A stretch of 64,000 bases of DNA from Escherichia phage Gostya9 (NC_047979.1); one strand, 5' to 3'; positions 81 through 10,450 are shown, numbered from the stretch's first letter. The notes: generated from the sequence alone by a model not told the origin. Numbers and translations are program-made.

Positions 81-812
81 TTACGCGACTTTTAATTTCT
101 CAATATATTGTTGTGGGCTGCAACTATATTCTGCGCGTTCTTCTTCGGTCATACCTTCCCAACATAATTGCAAGCGGTCGGCTAGGAACTGATAATCATT
201 ATCATCTTCAAGAGATTCATCAATAAAGGTTTCGCCGATCAATGTGACGCCTATTGATAGAATATCGTTAACGGCTTGCGCGTCCAGCGTTTTAAATCCA
301 TATGCCGCCGCCGCTGATAATACGCCTTTATGATCATCAATCATCGTGAAATCAGCGTTCGGATATAGCTGTTTGAATAGCTCAAAGTAATGGCTTTTAT
401 AAACAGCGTCTTTACTGTGGTATATCTCGCTAACCTTATCAGCCGAAAAATATTTGTGCAGTGTATCGCGGGAAAATACGCGGATATTGCTATTCCCTCG
501 CCCGCGCAGACCTTGCTTGCGTAGAAAATAATAATCTGATTTGCCCATCAGTCGAGCGGTGCAGATAATGTTTTGCGTGTTGCCGTCATTCATACACTGG
601 CGCATATAGGTAACTAGCGGCAAAAGCGTATCCTGCATTATTAACTCATGTTTGCACGCTTCATTTTTATACTTATTTAAATCTAAATCGCCTTCAATAT
701 CAAAGCAAGGCGCTACACGGTGAGCGGAGTTAATGATCGTGCCGTCCAGGTCCCAAATCATTACGCGGGAAATATGCGGGTAATTGCGGGTAATATTCGT
801 TACTTGATTCAT
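81..812 (-). CDS. dmp: 5'-deoxyribonucleotidase, HAD superfamily (Dmp-like)
   Basis: 243-aa ORF; HAD motif I DLDGT near N-terminus; size and terminal position match the T5 pre-early dmp gene (recalled, not searched). Confidence 0.75.
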   Translation of the reverse strand: MNQVTNITRNYPHISRVMIWDLDGTIINSAHRVAPCFDIEGDLDLNKYKNEACKHELIMQDTLLPLVTYMRQCMNDGNTQNIICTARLMGKSDYYFLRKQGLRGRGNSNIRVFSRDTLHKYFSADKVSEIYHSKDAVYKSHYFELFKQLYPNADFTMIDDHKGVLSAAAAYGFKTLDAQAVNDILSIGVTLIGETFIDESLEDDNDYQFLADRLQLCWEGMTEEERAEYSCSPQQYIEKLKVA

Positions 813-1358: not shown

Positions 1359-3023
1359 TTACGCGAAAAATTTGCCGTTTTTAAAGTCGATTAACGTGCG
1401 CTGCCCGTTCGCATATGTAATTACATGCGTTTGCGTCCAGCTTGATGCGCCCACGTTATAGCCCATGTCGAGGCTGCCCGATACGCCAGCAGTATATACG
1501 CCGCCGTAAATGCTGGCGGTATGGGTATGCCCCGTGTTTAATTTGCCCAACTTTTTAAACTGTTTCGGATTGCCACGACTCCCGTTAATGCCGTTGTGAC
1601 CGTGTACACCACACTCAATGCCTGCAATTTTAAATGATTGATCAGTGGTCAGGAAAATGGCGTTAAATTCACAACCTGCAACCTTACGTAGCGCATAATC
1701 AAGCACGTTGAAAGTATCGTCATTTTCTGCAATAGCTCCATAGATCGCGGCATTCAGGCGGTGATATAGTTCCGCGTTTGCTGGATCGTCTTTAATGTTA
1801 GCATTACGATCATCCAGCCAGCGAGATAGCGCCAGATCGTGGTTTGATTCAACGATGATTGTTTGCGAGAAATCGCGCTCCATTGATTCCAATACGCGGC
1901 CAGTATCAATGAGATCGTCCAGAACTTTATCACGTCCGGCGGCGTATTGTTTCGCTAGGAATACGCCCGATGCGCGGTTATGGTGGTTGCGTGATGTAAA
2001 GTCATGCACATCATGCACAAACTGATATTTTGGCTTGAGAATATCAAGCAAACTATTTTCGCCCGCCCATGACGCTGCGGCGCACGCCTTATCTAATTTT
2101 TCAGCGTGCACGTCGCCATACTGTAAACCTAAAACATGCCCCGATGTTTCATAGCATCCGGCGGGAGTGGCGCAAATATTCAAATCATAAAAAACGCCGG
2201 TTTCATCCATCGTCTCAAGCTGGCGAACAAAAAATGCCCCGTCCTCGTCGAACTCGACAATCAGCGCGCCAAAGTTATGTAACGCTTCGGCTTTTTGTCC
2301 TGCTTTCTGCTGAATGTAGTTTTTTAGCGTTGCCGCTCCCGTTGAGTACATACGGCGCACTACTTCACCTTTGAGCGCTGGGACACTTTCGGCGGTGATT
2401 TTTGCCGCTCCAATTGCCAGACCTTCAAGATCAAGCGCTGTTGCAGTCTCAGCGAATCCAGAAAGCGGATAGTCTGCCGTTGGCAAAACATTAATTTCAG
2501 CCATGAAAGCAAAGCGGCGATTATTTAAAAACACGTTTTTGCTGCAAATATATTTATCAAATACGGAGTCATATTTGATCCCGTCCGCGCCTTCTCCATT
2601 CTGGAATCCTTTTTTGTTATAAATGAACTTGCTAACCAGCAAATCAGCGCCGATAAATTGGGCGTAATGTTCAAGTGAGGCTAAAAAGTTTTTATGCGGG
2701 AACGTGTTGTTCTGGATTGATGTTATAATAAAGCGTTTACCCTGCTTTACTTCCCACTGTTCAACCGTGCTAGAAACAATACCCGCCGCCTCTGGGCGCT
2801 CGTCGTTTTTAATGGCTTTTTCTACTTTCGCCGCCTTTGGTTTCGCTGGTTTATTTGCTTCTAACCAATCACAGATCGCGGTGGAATGTTTTGTTGTATC
2901 GTACACCGCTTTTGATATATCGTCGCAGACTTCCAATCTAGTAGCGCGCAGACGTTTACCGTAAAAATTAAAATCAGCGGCCAGCTTCAGGATAACGGTT
3001 TGTTTTTCTGCGGAAATAACCAT
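1359..3023 (-). CDS. A1: A1-like pre-early protein with C-terminal metallophosphoesterase motifs
   Basis: 554-aa ORF; GVHGHNG and GHTHT phosphoesterase-type motifs near C-terminus; size close to T5 A1 as recalled (~556 aa). Confidence 0.75.
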   Translation of the reverse strand: MVISAEKQTVILKLAADFNFYGKRLRATRLEVCDDISKAVYDTTKHSTAICDWLEANKPAKPKAAKVEKAIKNDERPEAAGIVSSTVEQWEVKQGKRFIITSIQNNTFPHKNFLASLEHYAQFIGADLLVSKFIYNKKGFQNGEGADGIKYDSVFDKYICSKNVFLNNRRFAFMAEINVLPTADYPLSGFAETATALDLEGLAIGAAKITAESVPALKGEVVRRMYSTGAATLKNYIQQKAGQKAEALHNFGALIVEFDEDGAFFVRQLETMDETGVFYDLNICATPAGCYETSGHVLGLQYGDVHAEKLDKACAAASWAGENSLLDILKPKYQFVHDVHDFTSRNHHNRASGVFLAKQYAAGRDKVLDDLIDTGRVLESMERDFSQTIIVESNHDLALSRWLDDRNANIKDDPANAELYHRLNAAIYGAIAENDDTFNVLDYALRKVAGCEFNAIFLTTDQSFKIAGIECGVHGHNGINGSRGNPKQFKKLGKLNTGHTHTASIYGGVYTAGVSGSLDMGYNVGASSWTQTHVITYANGQRTLIDFKNGKFFA

Positions 3024-3375: not shown

Positions 3376-3792
3376 TTATTCACCTGCTGACTGTTTTACT
3401 TCATCTGCTACGCCTAGTAATTGCGCTACGGCGTCCAGCGTTTCTAATTTTGCGCTTTCCAGGCTTGCCAGATCGTCAGCGTCTTTGATAATGCCGGAAT
3501 CAATGGCGTGTTTTGCAATTACACGCACATAATGCGCCTTGCGGATTGAACTACCGCCGCCAACTTTGCGCGGTTTATCGCTTTTCTGATACGCTTTTGC
3601 GCTGGTCAATTTTGAGCGAACAGACACAGGGGAAGTAGCGCCCACTGTTTTGGCGATCTCTTTCAGGCCGTCGCTGTTGGCGAACTCAAGGCCGTTTTCA
3701 TTGATTAACTGCTGATACATAGAAACGGCTTTTTGGGTATTTTCTTCATTCCATGCAAATTTTGCGGATTTTTCGGTTTTAACGTTAGTCAT
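3376..3792 (-). CDS. putative HTH DNA-binding pre-early protein (possible A2-like)
   Basis: 138-aa ORF; helix-turn-helix-like segment LKEIAKTVGATSPVSVRSKL; conserved RBS context; A2 assignment is a guess. Confidence 0.45.
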   Translation of the reverse strand: MTNVKTEKSAKFAWNEENTQKAVSMYQQLINENGLEFANSDGLKEIAKTVGATSPVSVRSKLTSAKAYQKSDKPRKVGGGSSIRKAHYVRVIAKHAIDSGIIKDADDLASLESAKLETLDAVAQLLGVADEVKQSAGE

Positions 3793-4145: not shown

Positions 4146-5200
4146 GGTATAAACTCCAGTTATTTGATGGATTGTTCCGCATTACCTGCTAGAAAAGGGA
4201 TAACAGGTAATGGGTAACGATCCGTTCGCCGTTAAAATCAATTTAAGGAACTCCACACAGGCCGCTATATCCCGTTAGGGGGCGGGACACCTTATGGCAA
4301 GTGCCGGCCGTCAAATTGTACCAAGTTATTGCTCTTGTTGAATCGGGTACATCTTAAAGCCCATCGGCTAGGGTGTCAAATTATTTTTCGTTTTCTTTTA
4401 AATTAGAATTCTCCCAACTGAATTGCATCTCGCAAAATATTTTCCCATCTTTATGATGGTAAGATATTTCGCTCCCGTGGTTAGCACAAAAAGCGATCAC
4501 TGCCTCAGCTTGTTCCACCGTGATATTGTTAGCCGTTTCTTTGATTTTCATATCGTCGATTCCTTATAAGGTTAATAAGTTTGCCGCCGATAGGCTTTAA
4601 GGTGTACCTGATTTTTAAAGAGCGCGCGGCGGTAAACTCCCCGCCGTGTAGTCCGTTGCCGTCCTACGAGATAAATAATAGGGAATACCCAAAAATGGTG
4701 CAACCTTAATTTTGTAAAGAAATGTAAAGAAAGCAAATACTCGCACCGCGTCCGGTGATCGCCCAAGTTTAAAGGAAACGAGCGCGTGGATACCATAAAA
4801 CCGAGCTGATTGGCAAGTAATTTTTTCATTTTTATTTGCCTTGCCCTACTTGACAAATTCTAAAAAGCTCGTGGTGACGATAAACGGGCTGCCCCTTTAT
4901 GATGGGATACCTGAAAAAATTATCGCGTTAGAAAGCGTTTTTGGCCGCTTATTTTCGATTTAACAAATATTTAACAAAAGCAAAAATGAAAAATAGTTTG
5001 AAAAGGCATTGACTTTTAAAAATCAAGACTAAATGAGTTATTTTATAAAATTAATTAATTGACTTTTATTTGTTGTTGTGTAGTAGAAAGATAGCAGACT
5101 AATAATTACTAGAATGATAATCATGCTGGTGGGTTGTAACAGCCTGAACTATTAGCAGACTACTGATCCCGGAAAATATCATTAGCCAACTAACTATTCC

Positions 5201-5340
5201 ATAAGTTATAATAATTATAGAAATAATAACTATAGAAATAATAACTATAGAAATAATAACTATAGAAATAATAACTATAGAAATAATAACTATAGAAATA
5301 ATAACTATAGAAATAATAACTATAGAAATAATCACCGTTA
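5201..5340. repeat. 15-bp tandem repeat (TATAGAAATAATAAC), about 8-9 copies
   Basis: period-15 repetition read directly; produces the artefactual pentapeptide-repeat ORFs 5099..5350 and 5190..5414. Confidence 0.9.
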
Positions 5341-5394
5341 TAATAATCACTATAAGAAACTAATCGGCCTAAGTGAGAACCACTATCATTTAAG

Positions 5395-5486
5395 TTATCC
5401 ACAATGTTATCCACAGCACAAAATGATTTGACACGATAGGCGGCGATATAAGGACTTATCCACAGACTTATCCACAGGTTATCCTA
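5395..5486 (+). promoter_or_regulatory. cluster of four perfect DnaA boxes (TTATCCACA) plus one imperfect
   Basis: TTATCCACA at about 5395, 5407, 5456 and 5468, all same orientation; matches E. coli DnaA box consensus. Confidence 0.7.
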
Positions 5487-5504
5487 CTGTATATTTATAC
5501 AGGG
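5485..5504. promoter_or_regulatory. LexA (SOS) box-like palindrome
   Basis: TACTGTATATTTATACAGGG versus consensus TACTGTATATATATACAGTA; CTGT-N8-ACAG core intact. Confidence 0.6.
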
Positions 5505-5871
5505 TAAAAAGATAGTGTTTACAACTGCAATCAATTTTACGCGGCCTAAATCGCTTTCTAACGGGCTGATCGCTGTAGGGTAATATTAAAGTAAAGCCTC
5601 CAGCCGTTGCCCTGGAGGCTTCGCCGTGGTTTGCTCTTTACTGCACCGCTGCGCGGTTAGCATAAAACTAGGTGTTAGGCAAGAAAATAAAAAGTAAAGT
5701 AAACGTTGCCCCTAGAAAGAAAATAATTTTACCGGTAACATCGAAAGCGGGTAATAATTAACCTAGTGTAAAGTTTTGTAAGGCCAGCCATAATCGGCGG
5801 CCTTTATTGTTATAATGCCCTTACACCGTTTAAGGACGGTTAAAAATTTCCCACTAACTAGGAGAAGAAAA

Positions 5872-6051
5872 ATGGTTATTTTTCGATCTGTTCTGGCCGG
5901 TATCTTGGGCGCTATTCTGACTCTTTTTGCTACCGCTTACGGTATCCAGGATTCTTATTGTGGTTTAGTAAATACTAAACCGATGGTTATTATTGGCGCG
6001 GGTATCGCTGTTTTTTCTTATCTGCTGGGCTGCATGAATAAAGGGGAATAA
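5872..6051 (+). CDS. small membrane protein
   Basis: ATG preceded by AGGAGAAG RBS; 59 aa, two hydrophobic segments; first gene of a 4-gene plus-strand mini-operon. Confidence 0.45.
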   Translation: MVIFRSVLAGILGAILTLFATAYGIQDSYCGLVNTKPMVIIGAGIAVFSYLLGCMNKGE

Positions 6052-6052
6052 A

Positions 6053-6265
6053 ATGATCCGTAACGTTTCCCTTGCTCGTTCCAAAGGTTTTAAGCTGGTG
6101 GATGTAAACACGTTCGAGCGTCCTGATTGTAAAATCGAATATGTAGCGCGGAATAAAAACGCCTTTCGCGTTACAGAAAAGAGATTCGATAAGCGCGGCA
6201 ACATGATAATTGAAACGGTTAAATATTTTGCCACCTTTTACGCGGCCTTTCGTGGGGTACTATGA
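6053..6265 (+). CDS. hypothetical protein
   Basis: 70-aa ORF; start overlaps upstream stop (TAAAATG). Confidence 0.4.
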   Translation: MIRNVSLARSKGFKLVDVNTFERPDCKIEYVARNKNAFRVTEKRFDKRGNMIIETVKYFATFYAAFRGVL

Positions 6266-6369
6266 AGAGCGTTGTTATTGTTATCCTTGCAATGGTTGGC
6301 GGTTTTACTGCCACCTTATTAAAAAATGATCCTCTTTTATTGGGGGTTTTTATGCTTTTATCTGGTTAT
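6262..6369 (+). CDS. small hydrophobic protein (35 aa)
   Basis: ATG overlapping upstream stop; hydrophobic sequence; below the ORF-track size cutoff. Confidence 0.3.
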
Positions 6370-6388
6370 CTGATCGGGAGGTTATAAA

Positions 6389-6733
6389 ATGGTGATTTAT
6401 GAAGGTGATCGCTTTATTGCTGATTGCCGTCCGGCATTGTTAGCAAACTATTTAAATCAGCTTTCGCCAGTATATAAAGGCGTCCTAAATATTTATGAAG
6501 GTGAGGCGCATTATAAGGTCAATGCGGTCGTCGCCCGTGAACTAGCGTTTCAATTTTTGACCTTTGCATCTTGCGGTATTCAGGTCATGGGTGAAGCGTT
6601 AATAGCAGAAAATGAAGATGATTTTATTAATATCTTCCGCAAAATATGCACCGAGCGCCTGATAATGAAAGGGGCGTATATTCAATCAACTGCGGATAGT
6701 ATTGAAACGGCTTTTAGAAAGGGGGCACAATGA
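6389..6733 (+). CDS. hypothetical protein
   Basis: 114-aa ORF preceded by GGGAGG RBS. Confidence 0.45.
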   Translation: MVIYEGDRFIADCRPALLANYLNQLSPVYKGVLNIYEGEAHYKVNAVVARELAFQFLTFASCGIQVMGEALIAENEDDFINIFRKICTERLIMKGAYIQSTADSIETAFRKGAQ

Positions 6734-6859
6734 AGCTATATATTTTCGCGGGTAATGTTGAGGCTGCAAATGATTCCGCTGGTGGCGATAACGTTCGCCA
6801 TTATTGGCAAAATTATATTTACTAGGCGTAATAATCACGGGGCACAACTATCAGGGAGT

Positions 6860-6892
6860 GCCCCTGATTCTCAAATGAGAATGATTCTCATT
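6860..6892. repeat. palindrome AAATGAGAATGATTCTCATTT
   Basis: perfect inverted repeat; related palindromes recur at 7355-7380, 7553-7575 and 7588-7615. Confidence 0.7.
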
Positions 6893-7095
6893 TGACCGCG
6901 CCCGCTATGGTTAGCCTGCTAATGATTAGGGTGTTACGTGTCACCTTGCGTGATCGTTAGCCTGCAAATGATTAGCCTGCAAATGATTTGACCGCGCCCG
7001 CGATGGTTAGCCTGCAAATGATTAGCCTGCAAATGATTAGCCTGCAAATGATTAGGGTGTTATTTGTCGCCTTGTGTGATGGTTAGCGGGCTAAC
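6889..7095. repeat. two copies of a ~75-100-bp direct repeat containing 15-bp subrepeats (GATTAGCCTGCAAAT)
   Basis: TTTGACCGCGCCCGC..GGTTAGCCTGC..AGGGTGTTA unit seen twice with 2-3 tandem 15-mers inside. Confidence 0.8.
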
Positions 7096-7213
7096 TAATT
7101 TTCAAGCCTTCTTCAATTTTGCCCTTGTTTTAGTATCCCCACCAAAATAAAACGCGTTAGAAAGCGATTCAGGGCGTTTTAGGCCTATATTAGAATTATT
7201 CACTGCGTAGGAA

Positions 7214-7233
7214 TACTGTATAAATATACAGTA
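7214..7233. promoter_or_regulatory. LexA (SOS) box-like palindrome
   Basis: TACTGTATAAATATACAGTA, one mismatch to the LexA consensus; exact reverse complement of the 19-bp segment at 5484-5502. Confidence 0.65.
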
Positions 7234-7242
7234 GAATAACCT

Positions 7243-7323
7243 GGGGATAAGTCGGTGGATAACGCTTCAAAATGGCTAGAATTTTGTCAAGGCAAATCGT
7301 GCTGTTGATAAGTCTGTGGATAA
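7243..7323 (-). promoter_or_regulatory. DnaA-box cluster, opposite orientation to the 5395 cluster
   Basis: TGTGGATAA perfect at about 7315; GGTGGATAA and weaker GGGGATAAG / TTGATAAG nearby. Confidence 0.55.
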
Positions 7324-7340
7324 CTTAAATAACAGTGTTT

Positions 7341-7620
7341 CTCACTTCCGTTTTTAAATGCGAATCATTATCATTTGCACTCCACTTCTTGAATAGTTCT
7401 CATTCCACTTCTTGAATAGTTCTCATTCCACTTCTTGAATAGTTCTCATTCCACTTCTTGAATAGTTCTCATTCCACTTCTTGAATAGTTATCATTCCAC
7501 TTTTTAAATGATAATCATTCCACTTCTTAAATGATAATCATTTCACTTTTTAAATGAGAATGATTATCATTCGCATTCCACTTCTTAAATGCGAATCATT
7601 CTCATTCGCATTTAGGCGAG
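7341..7620. repeat. 23-bp tandem repeat array (CCACTTCTTGAATAGTTCTCATT, about 9 units with variants) containing palindromic sub-sites
   Basis: five near-identical units followed by diverged units; embedded palindromes AAATGCGAAT..ATTCGCATTT. Confidence 0.85.
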
Positions 7621-7636
7621 CAGGGCAATTGCCCTG
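7621..7636. repeat. perfect 16-bp palindrome CAGGGCAATTGCCCTG
   Basis: read directly. Confidence 0.7.
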
Positions 7637-7643
7637 CGCTTAT

Positions 7644-8443
7644 GTGCAAATCCGACAATTGCTCCAAGGGTTACGCGTGGGCATGTATGTGCAAATCCGA
7701 CCCATTTTTTGGTAGTGTGCAAATCCGACCCTAAAAATTTATAAATTCGTGAGAGTGACGAATCTGTCTCCCAAAAACTCCAGCAATCACGAACTGCGTT
7801 CGAATCCTGTGGGGTATGTGCAAATCCGACACGGTTTTTCTAGGATTAAGATGTGCGAATCCGATGAAATTTTTGTGACTTCGATGAGAGGGTGTGTGAT
7901 TGTATAGGTTTGAGGAGAAGGTGAGAGAGCGGGAGAAATTTTGGGACTAGAAGGATGTGGGCGCAGGATTGGTGCGGAGCACCTGATTTGCGGGGGTTTT
8001 GGGGGATAGTTGAGGTAATTTGGGGAAATTTGAGATAGGTGCAGAAAAAGTAAAATTTTATTAGCTAAATGGGGCAAAATAGCTTGACGAGTGAAAATTC
8101 TTGTGGCTCTAAAAACTCAGGCAATCACGGGCCTTCGGCCCGAAATAATGCTGCCATTTTCAGGAGATTATATGTTCCTAAAAACTTAGGCGTTTGTGCA
8201 AATCCGACCATAAGTTTCTAGAAACACAATGTACAAAACCGACAGTAATTTCTGGGAATGTGTTTTCAAAAAATGTCTTCTAGAAATAACCGCCCTCCCT
8301 ATAACCGCCCTATATTAACCGCCTATGCTAGAGTTTCTAGGAACAATGAAAACTGCCCTAGAATTTGTGCAAATCCGATGAATATTTCTGTGTGATCTCT
8401 AGAATTTATACTTATCAATTTCCTAGAATATGTGCAAATCCGA
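7644..8443 (+). repeat. dispersed direct repeat family TGTGCAAATCCGA(C/T), at least 8 copies, same orientation
   Basis: copies near 7644, 7688, 7716, 7817, 7853 (variant), 8194, 8365 and 8430; frequently followed by a T-run; one extra copy inside CDS at about 10107. Confidence 0.8.
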
Positions 8444-8495
8444 TGAATATTTTTGTGTGATCTCTAGAATTTATGCTTATCAATTTCCTAGAAAC
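8358..8495. repeat. ~70-bp tandem duplication
   Basis: TGTGCAAATCCGATGAATATTT..TCTCTAGAATTTAT..CAATTTCCTAGAA present twice in tandem with 3 substitutions. Confidence 0.8.
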
Positions 8496-8891
8496 TTAGG
8501 AGTCTGCTAGAAAGTGTTGAGCCATCCTAGCAGATGAGCGGCAACCGGTGTATCATCTTGAACACAGATATTGCCTTTAAATTTTTTATCAGTTATTTTT
8601 AAATATAAGATCCCCCAAGGTTCTCATATAGAGCTTTGCCCCCGCCAGAAGGTCTCGTGATGTTTCTAGTAATCTTTATTAAATTACCTATTGACTTGTC
8701 CTGTCGCTCCGTAACCTACGCTACAAGTCAGTAATTTAAGATTCCTGAACCACCACACCTTCTGTGTGGCAACTCTAAATGGTTAATTCTATTAACTCAT
8801 AGAGTTATGATAACATACATTTAGCTATCTGTCAACGAGAGTTTGTATTATTGTCTCGGTACAGGTATTGTGCACCGAGACTTGCAGAGTA

Positions 8892-9776
8892 TTATAATAA
8901 TTCTTGGTATGCTTTTTGATACGCCTCAGTATCTGTAGGTGTACCTTTTGCTAACGCAATTAGTTCATCCGTTATCTGAATATTCGTATTATAACGTGTG
9001 TGGAACTCGTCAGGGATTTCTAGATATCTATTTATGAACGCTGCAGCAAGCGGTGAAGCTACACCCATTTCTAGAACCCATCCAACATGGTTTTCAAACT
9101 TCAGATAAGGGGAATCAGATGGGGTTGGTGGGGTTACATCAATTTTCTCTGGTTCTTTTTCTGGAAGCAATGGATTACTATATAATGCTTCATCTGGAAG
9201 CACAGATTTACGCTCTTTAAATATATAAGTTTCTAGATCAGATGCCTTAGATCCTGAGTACACAGCAAAAACGCTAGCTTTACCTTGTGATGCCCTAACT
9301 GGTAGATAACTAGTAGGATAGCTTCTTAATGCATCATGGAATGGACTTCCTGAATATTTGTACGTATCTCCATAGAGATCATCAATATTCATTCGTTCAT
9401 CTTCAAAAATGTGAAATGACTTAAATGGTGGAATGGTGAAGTACTCCATCTGTAATCCATAAACTAAGAAACGATGTGCATATGCACTGATTTTTAAGAC
9501 TGTGAATGCTTTTTCACCTTCTTTATGGGCATTGCCCTTTGAAGTAACTGGGTAACGTTTACAAAACATCTCTACTAGACGTTTCTCATTAATATTGAGT
9601 GAGGAATATAAACGTCCATTTAGCCCTATAAGTGCATCGAACATAAATGCTAGTTTATCTTTTTCTTCTTGGGTTAGTCCAGGAAACGGAAGTACTTTAG
9701 CATTAGGAACACTATTATTCTCTTTAGGTTTTGTTTTACCAGCATTTTGTCTTAGTTTATCTTTAAAGTTATACAT
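8892..9776 (-). CDS. hypothetical protein
   Basis: 294-aa ORF; GGGAG RBS upstream; no motif recognised. Confidence 0.55.
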   Translation of the reverse strand: MYNFKDKLRQNAGKTKPKENNSVPNAKVLPFPGLTQEEKDKLAFMFDALIGLNGRLYSSLNINEKRLVEMFCKRYPVTSKGNAHKEGEKAFTVLKISAYAHRFLVYGLQMEYFTIPPFKSFHIFEDERMNIDDLYGDTYKYSGSPFHDALRSYPTSYLPVRASQGKASVFAVYSGSKASDLETYIFKERKSVLPDEALYSNPLLPEKEPEKIDVTPPTPSDSPYLKFENHVGWVLEMGVASPLAAAFINRYLEIPDEFHTRYNTNIQITDELIALAKGTPTDTEAYQKAYQELL

Positions 9777-9793
9777 TATTATCTCCCATTTTT

Positions 9794-9828
9794 AAGGTCT
9801 GGATGACCTTCTTTTTATTTTAGAGCCT
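9794..9828 (+). terminator. rho-independent terminator-like hairpin oriented on plus strand
   Basis: AAGGTC-TGGAT-GACCTT followed by CTTTTTATTTT; a second hairpin GAGCCTC-CGTA-GAGGCTC lies at 9831-9849. Confidence 0.45.
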
Positions 9829-9853
9829 CCGTAGAGGCTCATGTATTAGAGGG

Positions 9854-10450
9854 TTAACTACCTCTCTTATCTTCATTAATAACAGCTCCTAGTGCCCCCA
9901 TAATTGCATCTTCTATACTTCCATGCTTACTAGGATTGCTTAAGTGAATAGTATATGAGTTCCTAGAAACTCCAGAGTCCACAGGCGCTACGCTTTTCAT
10001 ATCAGACTCAAAAGCTTCTTGAGTATGTTTCAATTGTGCAGAAGGTCCATAATCTTCCCCAAACTTATATGACTGTGTACTACTTACCGCACCCCCACAT
10101 GGAACATTGTGCAAATCCGATGGATTATTTAACAGTGCAATGCCACTTCTCGGCCACAGGTCACTAACATGGGTACTAGGACGGTTAACCTCAGTCTTCA
10201 CAAGTTTATAACCAGCATCGATCAGTGCATTAATAAGGTTATCAGCTGGAATGCGAGCCTTGCCGAAAATCTCACGAGCGTTGTTGAGCCTACCTTCAAA
10301 ACCTTTACATGCTCTAATATTAGTGTGTGCAAAGGTTAGCTTCATAGATTTGAATTGTACAGTAGCAGTTAAATCTTTAAAGCTATAATCCCACGTATTC
10401 AGTTCATGATCTGGTACTACTTGAATAGATTGTTGTGCATATAAAGTCAT
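9854..10450 (-). CDS. hypothetical protein
   Basis: 198-aa ORF; contains an internal copy of the TGTGCAAATCCGA motif. Confidence 0.55.
   Translation of the reverse strand: MTLYAQQSIQVVPDHELNTWDYSFKDLTATVQFKSMKLTFAHTNIRACKGFEGRLNNAREIFGKARIPADNLINALIDAGYKLVKTEVNRPSTHVSDLWPRSGIALLNNPSDLHNVPCGGAVSSTQSYKFGEDYGPSAQLKHTQEAFESDMKSVAPVDSGVSRNSYTIHLSNPSKHGSIEDAIMGALGAVINEDKRGS

Follow-up and report, generated by a model that had tools for sequence, protein, structure and literature searches.

The repeat and palindrome block of the injection stop signal in T5-like phage Gostya9 contains close matches to Fur-family operators and is a candidate binding array for host Fur

In the 64,000-nucleotide stretch of Escherichia phage Gostya9 (NC_047979.1) that was analyzed here, called the window below, a compact block of tandem repeats and palindromes at 7343-7619 lies downstream of the genes dmp (81-812, minus strand), A1 (1359-3023) and A2 (3376-3792, minus strand), all of them pre-early, in the non-coding end of the terminal repeat. 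By homology, this block is the repeat and palindrome part (direct repeat C/DRE and palindromes E-I in T5) of the injection stop signal that T5-like phages have in their left terminal repeat, and it lies where the DNA transferred first gives way to the DNA transferred second. Why T5 halts after 8% of its DNA has entered has been a question for more than 50 years, and the match that we describe here between the palindromes of the block and Fur operators, with a LexA-type box nearby, provides a lead that can be tested experimentally.

An earlier note on this DNA had reported a 23-bp tandem array at 7341-7620 with about nine units that degrade toward the 3' side into palindromes. The array is borne out by Tandem Repeats Finder, which returns a period of 23 at 7381-7555 (7.6 copies, 94% matches, score 238-248) and a second period of 35 nt at 7539-7612, the same register being recovered by a second repeat search. 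Exact parsing divides 7343-7619 into ten head-to-tail units, close to the number first proposed: one of 35 nt, seven of 23 nt, one of 35 nt and one of 41 nt, all on the plus strand. The first (about 7343-7382, placed by alignment to T5 record AY587007) contains an imperfect palindrome, AAATGCGAATCATTATCATTT, at 7356-7376. The next five (7383-7497) read CACTTCTTGAATAGTT[C/A]TCATTC, four of them being identical and the fifth having a single change; these are the GAATAGTTCTCATT units, whose copy number of five is that of the window sequence as assembled, and each has only a right-hand half-site (TTCTCATT). The following two 23-nt units (7498-7543) read CACTTYTTAAATGATAATCATTY, with AAATGATAAT, and each contains AATGATAATCATT. 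The second 35-nt unit (7544-7578) has the palindrome AAATGAGAATGATTATCATTC at 7552-7572, and the 41-nt unit (7579-7619) has AAATGCGAATCATTCTCATTC at 7587-7607 plus additional ATTCGC hexamers. The palindromes are therefore real, whereas the gradient of decay is not, since full palindromic units stand at both ends of the array and the units fall into three discrete types. A coding role was considered and rejected, as there is no open reading frame (ORF) of at least 100 aa in 6733-8892 and the 53-aa ORF at 7554-7715 simply overlies the repeats; no ORF is present for 1.2 kb downstream of the array, and no terminator was found inside it.

The same palindrome does occur upstream of the array, as the earlier note had also claimed for 6860-6892. 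It is placed at 6873-6893, where AAATGAGAATGATTCTCATTT forms a perfect 10-1-10 palindrome that is self-complementary at 20 of 21 positions, all but the center base, and it comes just after a GC-rich hairpin (6839-6864) that stands where the rightward pre-early operon ends. When the half-site AAATGAGAAT is sought with at most one mismatch, 19 matches are found in 64 kb, and ten of these fall at 6873-6893 and 7356-7613; as the other nine are at the level expected by chance (10.2), the half-sites are clustered at these two places beyond chance.

What the earlier note did not recognize is where the array is embedded, and here homology and existing annotation are clear. The surrounding 2.2 kb match 442 phage records in a nucleotide search, every one of them T5-like, and the match to T5 over the annotated injection stop signal (iss) and the palindrome and direct repeat features has 86-98% coverage at 89% identity. 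In T5 record AY543070 it falls on the feature 'injection stop signal (iss)' at 9140-10149 in the left terminal repeat, and in the finer annotation of AY587007 the corresponding features are direct repeat C copies 1-4 and palindromes E-I (9468-9637), which align unit by unit with 7343-7619 of the window. At the level of bases the order of units is identical, with the GAATAGTTCTCATT unit present five times here and once in T5, and the distance from the left anchor of the array to the first copy of direct repeat D is 312 bp here as against 225-226 bp in T5. The block is present in both T5 terminal repeats, being found at two places in the T5 record, and over its whole length the window shares ~94% identity with several T5-like phages of Salmonella. 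By calculation, the first-transferred DNA shears at ~9618 in AY587007 (Davison 2020), which is inside direct repeat C copy 4 (9607-9637), and it is this copy, with palindrome I, that has the 41-nt unit at 7579-7619 as its homologue.

The flanks correspond as well. To the left lies the right arm (7216-7347) of a 132-nt inverted repeat, which holds palindrome D and two pairs of DnaA or DnaA-like boxes (7242-7250/7254-7262 and 7303-7311/7315-7323, the boxes of each pair being 3 bp apart). To the right lie palindrome J (GCAGGGCAATTGCCCTGC, 7620-7637, with GCGC at 7636-7639), which is the homologue of the major single-strand interruption of T5 at 7.9%, and then eight copies of TGTGCAAATCCGA on the plus strand (7643-8443) that correspond to direct repeat D of the T5 annotation. 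These eight copies are spread over 800 nt of ORF-free DNA in which the terminal repeat is expected to end, and a 65-nt tandem duplication (8357-8493) contains two of them. The element itself is already known, having been described in 1987, annotated in 2005 and compared over 25 phages in 2015/2020, and the window contains one more allele of it, with an expanded unit. It was found to be conserved in all 25 T5-like phages compared, with a function 'impossible to guess' (Davison 2020), and the T5 stop signal is still described solely in terms of repeats, palindromes and DnaA boxes (PNAS 2026). The site of the stop has been inferred from its position, not from mutants (Davison 2020; PNAS 2026).

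The comparison of repeat number among related phages that the earlier note had suggested was made with 31-33 distinct array versions from IMG/VR and GenBank. The array is present in all of these, always between the DnaA-box inverted repeat and the TGTGCAAATCCGA repeats, which excludes assembly artefacts as a class of explanation. No database phage has an identical array, the best match being DT57C at 91.6%, and the number of units varies freely, from about 3 to 10, as is seen from the left anchor and the first TGTGCAAATCCGA repeat being 150-329 bp apart; nonetheless the block, the grammar of its units and its neighbors persist in phages whose A1 is only 65-73% identical. Distances from spacer to spacer are 23 (73 cases), 29 (8 cases) or 35 nt (23 cases), all of which are 23+6n, and with the terminal units of 41-47 nt included the unit lengths of 23, 29, 35, 41 and 47 nt are all 11+6n. 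A unit thus consists of an 11-nt spacer (ACTTYTTAAAT) and, after it, between two and six hexamers, each of the GAKAAT, ATTMTC or ATTCGC type, and it is because of this build from spacer and hexamers that full units form 7-1-7 and 10-1-10 palindromes. In most relatives the solitary palindrome is also found, at a fixed -336 from the left anchor of the array, and only its center base flips between G and C, as would be expected if a dimer reads the two half-sites.

Neither a comparable array nor a cluster of Fur matches was found in very distant A1-bearing contigs (35-49% A1 identity). Two such metagenomic contigs (A1 43-49%) have a different 15-nt tandem array, TGGTGCAGACCTTCG, in 9-13 copies a few kb from A1 (L076, 7177-7371, and L078, 7245-7371, in reverse-complement coordinates).

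The full units, TGAGAAT-N-ATTATCA, are very close to the 7-1-7 Fur box, TGATAAT-N-ATTATCA. The best site of the array lies within the unit at 7544-7578 (7555-7574), where TGAGAATGATTATCA agrees with the 7-1-7 consensus TGATAATNATTATCA at 13 of 14 positions and GAGAATGATTATCATTCGC agrees with the 19-bp Fur consensus GATAATGATAATCATTATC at 16 of 19, a score that was reached in 6 of 5000 composition-matched shuffles. The core of the first unit, TGCGAATCATTATCA (7359-7373), has two mismatches to TGATAATNATTATCA (12/14) and matches the 19-mer consensus at 14/19, and the solitary palindrome (6876-6890) also matches TGATAATNATTATCA at 12/14. In the units at 7498-7543, AATGATAATCATT is identical to the central 13 nt of the 19-bp consensus, giving 13/19. 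Fur boxes have also been described as at least three adjacent NATWAT-type hexamers in 6-bp steps, and such runs are present here, many of the hexamers (GAGAAT, GCGAAT, ATTCGC) being off at one or two positions.

We scored 24 consensus strings of E. coli DNA-binding proteins, taken from general knowledge, against shuffles, and Fur was the only one to rise above them in the array, while LexA and DnaA were the only ones to do so in the flank. In the array, CRP, FNR, ArgR, IHF, Fis, PurR, TyrR, TrpR, Zur and MntR all stayed at the level of the shuffles, as did LacI/GalR, ArcA, PhoB, NagC, CytR, MetJ, OxyR, NikR, H-NS and Lrp. We also built a matrix from the Gram-negative iron boxes in PMC10665472, from which the single site with the phage 15-mer was excluded. 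Applied as a positive control to a 27-kb stretch of E. coli, it ranks the intergenic regions of fepB-entC, fepD-entS and fepA-fes highest (11-23 bits). The phage array sites score 13-19 bits with it (19.2 bits for the site in the unit at 7544-7578, 13-14 bits for those at 7498-7543), and seven matches of at least 10 bits fall within 280 nt, as opposed to at most three in 200 shuffles of the window.

The comparison holds in the other direction. The half-site profile drawn from 83 distinct phage 21-mers, AAATG[A/c][G/t]AAT, has 8 of its 10 majority bases in common with the Fur set (column-permutation fraction 0.00025), and when a matrix was made from 60 phage palindromes alone, its top four matches in the E. 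coli stretch were in the fepD-entS, fepB-entC (twice) and fepA-fes regions. As these Fur-controlled ent/fep intergenic regions make up 2.7% of those 27 kb, the chance of such a result is about 5e-7.

The exact pattern AATGAGAATNATTCTCATT, the 19-nt core of the solitary palindrome, is also used by bacteria ahead of iron-related genes. It occurs in at least 120 bacterial loci, and by a strict criterion 85 of the 120 sites listed (71%) are intergenic. Among the matches listed, 50 of the 137 genes that start at most 300 nt downstream of it, on either strand, belong to the families named below, as opposed to 6 of 137 control genes taken 2.5 kb away in the same loci (Fisher p = 1e-11). The families are TonB-receptor Plug (12 members), Fe-type solute-binding proteins (9), ZnuA/TroA (6), FUR (6), ECF sigma factors (6), FeoB (4), FTR1 (3), PepSY_TM (2) and ZIP (2). 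Together with the ent/fep matches in E. coli, this census identifies the pattern as one that stands before iron-regulated bacterial genes. As far as sequence can establish it, we regard it as firm that the palindromes are sequences that bacteria use as Fur-family operators. The earlier proposal that a dimeric protein recognizes multiple sites here therefore gains support at that level, from the Fur-operator match and from the G/C flip at the palindrome center among relatives, although the candidate it had in mind was a phage regulator and the best sequence match is to the operator of a host protein. A phage-encoded Fur was ruled out, since tblastn with E. coli Fur and five Fur-family proteins detected no homologue in the window or in 80 T5-like loci.

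A perfect 7-1-7 Fur box, TGATAATCATTATCA, was also noticed at 190-204, inside dmp, which encodes a 5'-deoxyribonucleotidase. In about 35 of 38 aligned related loci it shows no change, while synonymous positions next to it vary, and it could be either a functional site or a product of codon bias (DDNDYQ).

Not all of the array takes part in this signal. No Fur-matrix match of at least 10 bits starts in 7378-7500, the array sites being at 7354-7372 or from 7504 on, and the conspicuous run of five 23-nt units is neither palindromic nor Fur-like. By this measure the GAATAGTTCTCATT units are not part of the Fur-like signal. They are not degenerate copies either: across relatives the type is tied for the commonest 23-nt type, with 19 instances each, and the unit is therefore a conserved one. 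The run of five is best read as a recent, lineage-specific expansion by slippage or unequal exchange.

The signals in the flank concern two other host proteins. Palindrome D of T5 corresponds in the window to a LexA (SOS) box at 7214-7233, TACTGTATAAATATACAGTA, which agrees with TACTGTATATATATACAGTA at 19 of 20 positions, and the mirror arm contains another at 5485-5504, TACTGTATATTTATACAGGG, with 17 of 20. Nearly all relatives, even those whose A1 is 72-73% identical, have the right-hand box at a fixed -121 nt relative to the array anchor; the CTGT and ACAG ends of the box are nearly always kept, and its center varies mostly between A and T. No mention of LexA or SOS was found in the T5 stop-signal literature searched. 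The 132-nt inverted repeat to which these boxes belong (5371-5502/7216-7347) is 78% complementary and brackets the rightward pre-early operon (5815-6733). Two pairs of perfect TTATCCACA DnaA boxes, four boxes in all, lie in its left arm and four variants in its right arm, and all eight have already been described and proposed as DnaA boxes by Davison 2020.

Several further features surround these arms. A degenerate palindromic unit at 5374-5393, at the outer (left) end of the left arm, mirrors the one at 7356-7376. Just outside the left arm, and mirror-symmetric to the 23-nt array outside the right arm, is a 15-nt tandem array at 5208-5332 (ATAATAACTATAGAA, 8.3 copies, 99% identical), the reverse complement of which shares ATAGTT.T.ATT with the GAATAGTTCTCATT unit; two repeat-peptide ORFs on the minus strand that cover it (5099-5350 and 5190-5414) can almost certainly be dismissed as spurious. 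A further repeat family, at 6890-7055, separates the solitary palindrome from the DnaA-box arm, with six copies of TTAGCCTGCAAATGA in approximately three 50-nt units that start with TTTGACCGCGCCCGC, and in place of these repeats T5 has the small ORFs T5.016 and T5.017.

What might a Fur-type array do at this place? The receptors by which T5 and a number of related phages gain entry, FhuA and FepA among them, are iron receptors under Fur control. The pause in transfer occurs without phage protein synthesis, and the host factor behind it is not known (Davison 2020; PNAS 2026); restart of the transfer requires A1 and A2, according to the literature. Because Fur needs no phage gene expression, it would fit a pause of this kind. 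The most likely course of events seems to us to be that, as this stretch enters the cytoplasm, several dimers of the abundant host Fur, with Fe2+, would bind the palindromic units and the solitary site at 6873-6893, and that Fur, with the adjacent LexA-type and DnaA boxes, would give rise to a complex of host proteins on the last DNA of the first transfer. Such a complex would most likely have a part in holding or marking the pause point, and A1 and A2 would act on it afterwards. As the trans-acting factors present when transfer pauses should be pre-existing host proteins, the clustering of high-grade sites for three abundant ones makes multi-site Fur binding, with LexA and DnaA, seem the most likely event.

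We infer that Fur would bind and that its binding may contribute to the pause, and the two parts deserve different degrees of belief. We lean, although not strongly, toward the block being a Fur-type operator array that host Fur binds. That a composite landing pad for Fur, LexA and DnaA on the last few hundred bp of the first-transferred DNA actually creates the pause seems to us doubtful. In that case, how long or how strong the pause is would depend on the host's iron and SOS state, up to the point at which the complex is cleared or cut by A1 and A2.

Several observations count against Fur as the intended ligand or against a role for it in the pause. The commonest phage hexamers, GAGAAT and GCGAAT, are one or two positions away from the ideal GATAAT, so affinity could be modest, and background matches to the Fur matrix elsewhere in this AT-rich phage DNA reach 15-18 bits. 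None of the 120 listed AATGAGAATNATTCTCATT loci is enterobacterial, which leaves the E. coli ent/fep controls as the link to the host. The overlap with a promoter that is typical of Fur operators is not seen. T5 itself does not have the solitary palindrome. The 11-nt spacer is kept across divergent phages, which suggests a longer footprint or a second binding partner, and another partner is likewise hinted at by the half of the array, the GAATAGTTCTCATT units, that is not Fur-like and yet is conserved in type. There is also no obvious way in which a protein on DNA that is already inside the cell would stop the entry of more. To our knowledge, screens for T5 resistance recover fhuA and not fur, and fur mutants are not known as T5-resistant, so Fur cannot be essential for infection. 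As for the literature, the text of Davison 2020 mentions neither Fur, LexA nor SOS, and a search that left most subscription journals outside its reach found no paper joining Fur with first-step transfer or the stop signal of T5.

A rival to Fur as reader of the array is a phage protein, A2, a dimeric dsDNA-binding pre-early protein that associates with membrane-bound A1 and that could load on the palindromes, alone or by displacing host proteins, and recruit A1 to restart entry or to cut. Its gene is only 3.5 kb away and is classed by PHROG as 'DNA binding protein', array and protein are both conserved across T5-like phages, and the literature describes A2 as a DNA-binding dimer that is required for second-step transfer and whose target and role are not known. 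In its AlphaFold model (pLDDT 82) the protein is entirely helical and has an N-terminal domain of three helices as well as a basic linker. However, no sequence specificity is on record for A2, and its confident helical model offered no clue to one, as a fold search of the PDB gave no significant match (best E = 0.8, HTH/Myb-like only). Nor can A2 explain the pause itself, which occurs without phage protein synthesis, and if it were the ligand, the match to Fur operators would have to be coincidence or mimicry. We therefore consider A2 an improbable reader of the array, while keeping it as the foremost competitor to Fur. The linker that joins its two helical domains, KSDKPRKVGGGSS, is basic, glycine-rich and of low confidence in the model, and is better conserved than any other part of the family; A2 is listed in the protein database under PF26822.

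If host Fur does bind the palindromes, it could do so in the ordinary way, controlling an iron-regulated rightward transcript into the 1.2-kb region downstream or stopping transcription that runs on from the pre-early operon. It is over promoters that Fur boxes are normally found, some weak promoter-like hexamers do lie over the palindromes (for example TTCACT-17-TATCAT at 7542-7570, 9/12), and the solitary palindrome follows the GC-rich hairpin at the end of the operon. Yet such hexamers are found at the frequency seen in shuffles (17 matches as opposed to 14.5 expected) and none in the array exceeds 9/12, so that we could identify no convincing promoter overlapping the sites and rejected one inside the array; the 1.2 kb has no ORF that a transcript could serve; and an RNA element was also rejected, there being no Rfam match in 4300-9200 at E <= 1 and a single chance match elsewhere. 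Ordinary operators of this type are, in our judgment, decidedly unlikely.

The two DnaA box pairs (7242-7323) that stand directly before 7-10 tandem 23-nt units are reminiscent of an iteron origin, and direct repeats of the 17-23 bp range beside DnaA boxes are indeed what such elements consist of. An iteron-type element might initiate replication, pair the terminal repeats ('handcuffing') for circle formation or act as an anchor, and the presence of the block in both T5 terminal repeats would suit such pairing. Nevertheless, we think this very unlikely: Pfam and PHROGs reveal no Rep-like initiator or ParB-like protein among the ten terminal-repeat proteins, T5 origins have been mapped near mid-genome and replication genes are not expressed from the first-transferred DNA (Davison 2020), and relatives differ in their number of units, from about 3 to 10, while no nearby gene changes along with it. 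Finally, we give little credence to the DNA itself being the signal, with nested palindromes that jam the tail or the membrane channel as hairpins, cruciforms or a stiff or bent segment, since, although secondary structure is among the proposed bases of the stop (PNAS 2026) and a single strand of the array folds far better than shuffles (-35.8 kcal/mol, z = -5.6), any set of palindromes would fold as well, the arms are short (10 nt) and AT-rich in a DNA that is linear and nicked and so has no supercoiling to drive extrusion, the complete T5 genome is ejected in vitro into FhuA proteoliposomes according to the literature, indicating that DNA alone does not block the channel, and the match to Fur operators, which goes beyond symmetry, would be left unexplained.

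If Fur is what the palindromic units bind, Fur boxes would here serve, unusually, for something other than the control of promoters; should Fur not bind, our finding reduces to the re-description of a known and conserved element.

It is instructive to set the array beside the systems it most resembles. With Repeat Region 3 of T5 (direct repeats C/E and palindromes E-I; Heusterspreute et al. 1987; Wang et al. 2005, AY587007; Davison 2020) it shares homologous sequence, a homologous place and the types of its units, whereas at 6873-7055, the place of the two small ORFs in T5, Gostya9 has the solitary perfect palindrome and a 15/50-nt repeat block. Plasmid and P1-type iteron origins, and centromere arrays like that of F sopC, have in common with it tandem direct repeats of ~20 nt with inverted repeats beside paired DnaA boxes, but here a cognate Rep or ParB gene was not found and the origin activity of T5 has been mapped elsewhere. 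There is also a likeness to the Fur operators of Gram-negative bacteria, such as those of fepA-fes, fepD-entS and fepB-entC in E. coli, of the (GATAAT)n and 7-1-7 kind, with which the phage sites share the 7-1-7 geometry, a near-identical sequence and the 6-nt hexamer steps. The chromosomal operators, for their part, overlap promoters and have genes to regulate, while the phage sites overlap no recognizable promoter and have no gene to regulate; and it is in the phage array, and not in the chromosomal operators, that about five full and half sites are set out with a conserved 11-nt spacer and a 23/35-nt phasing.

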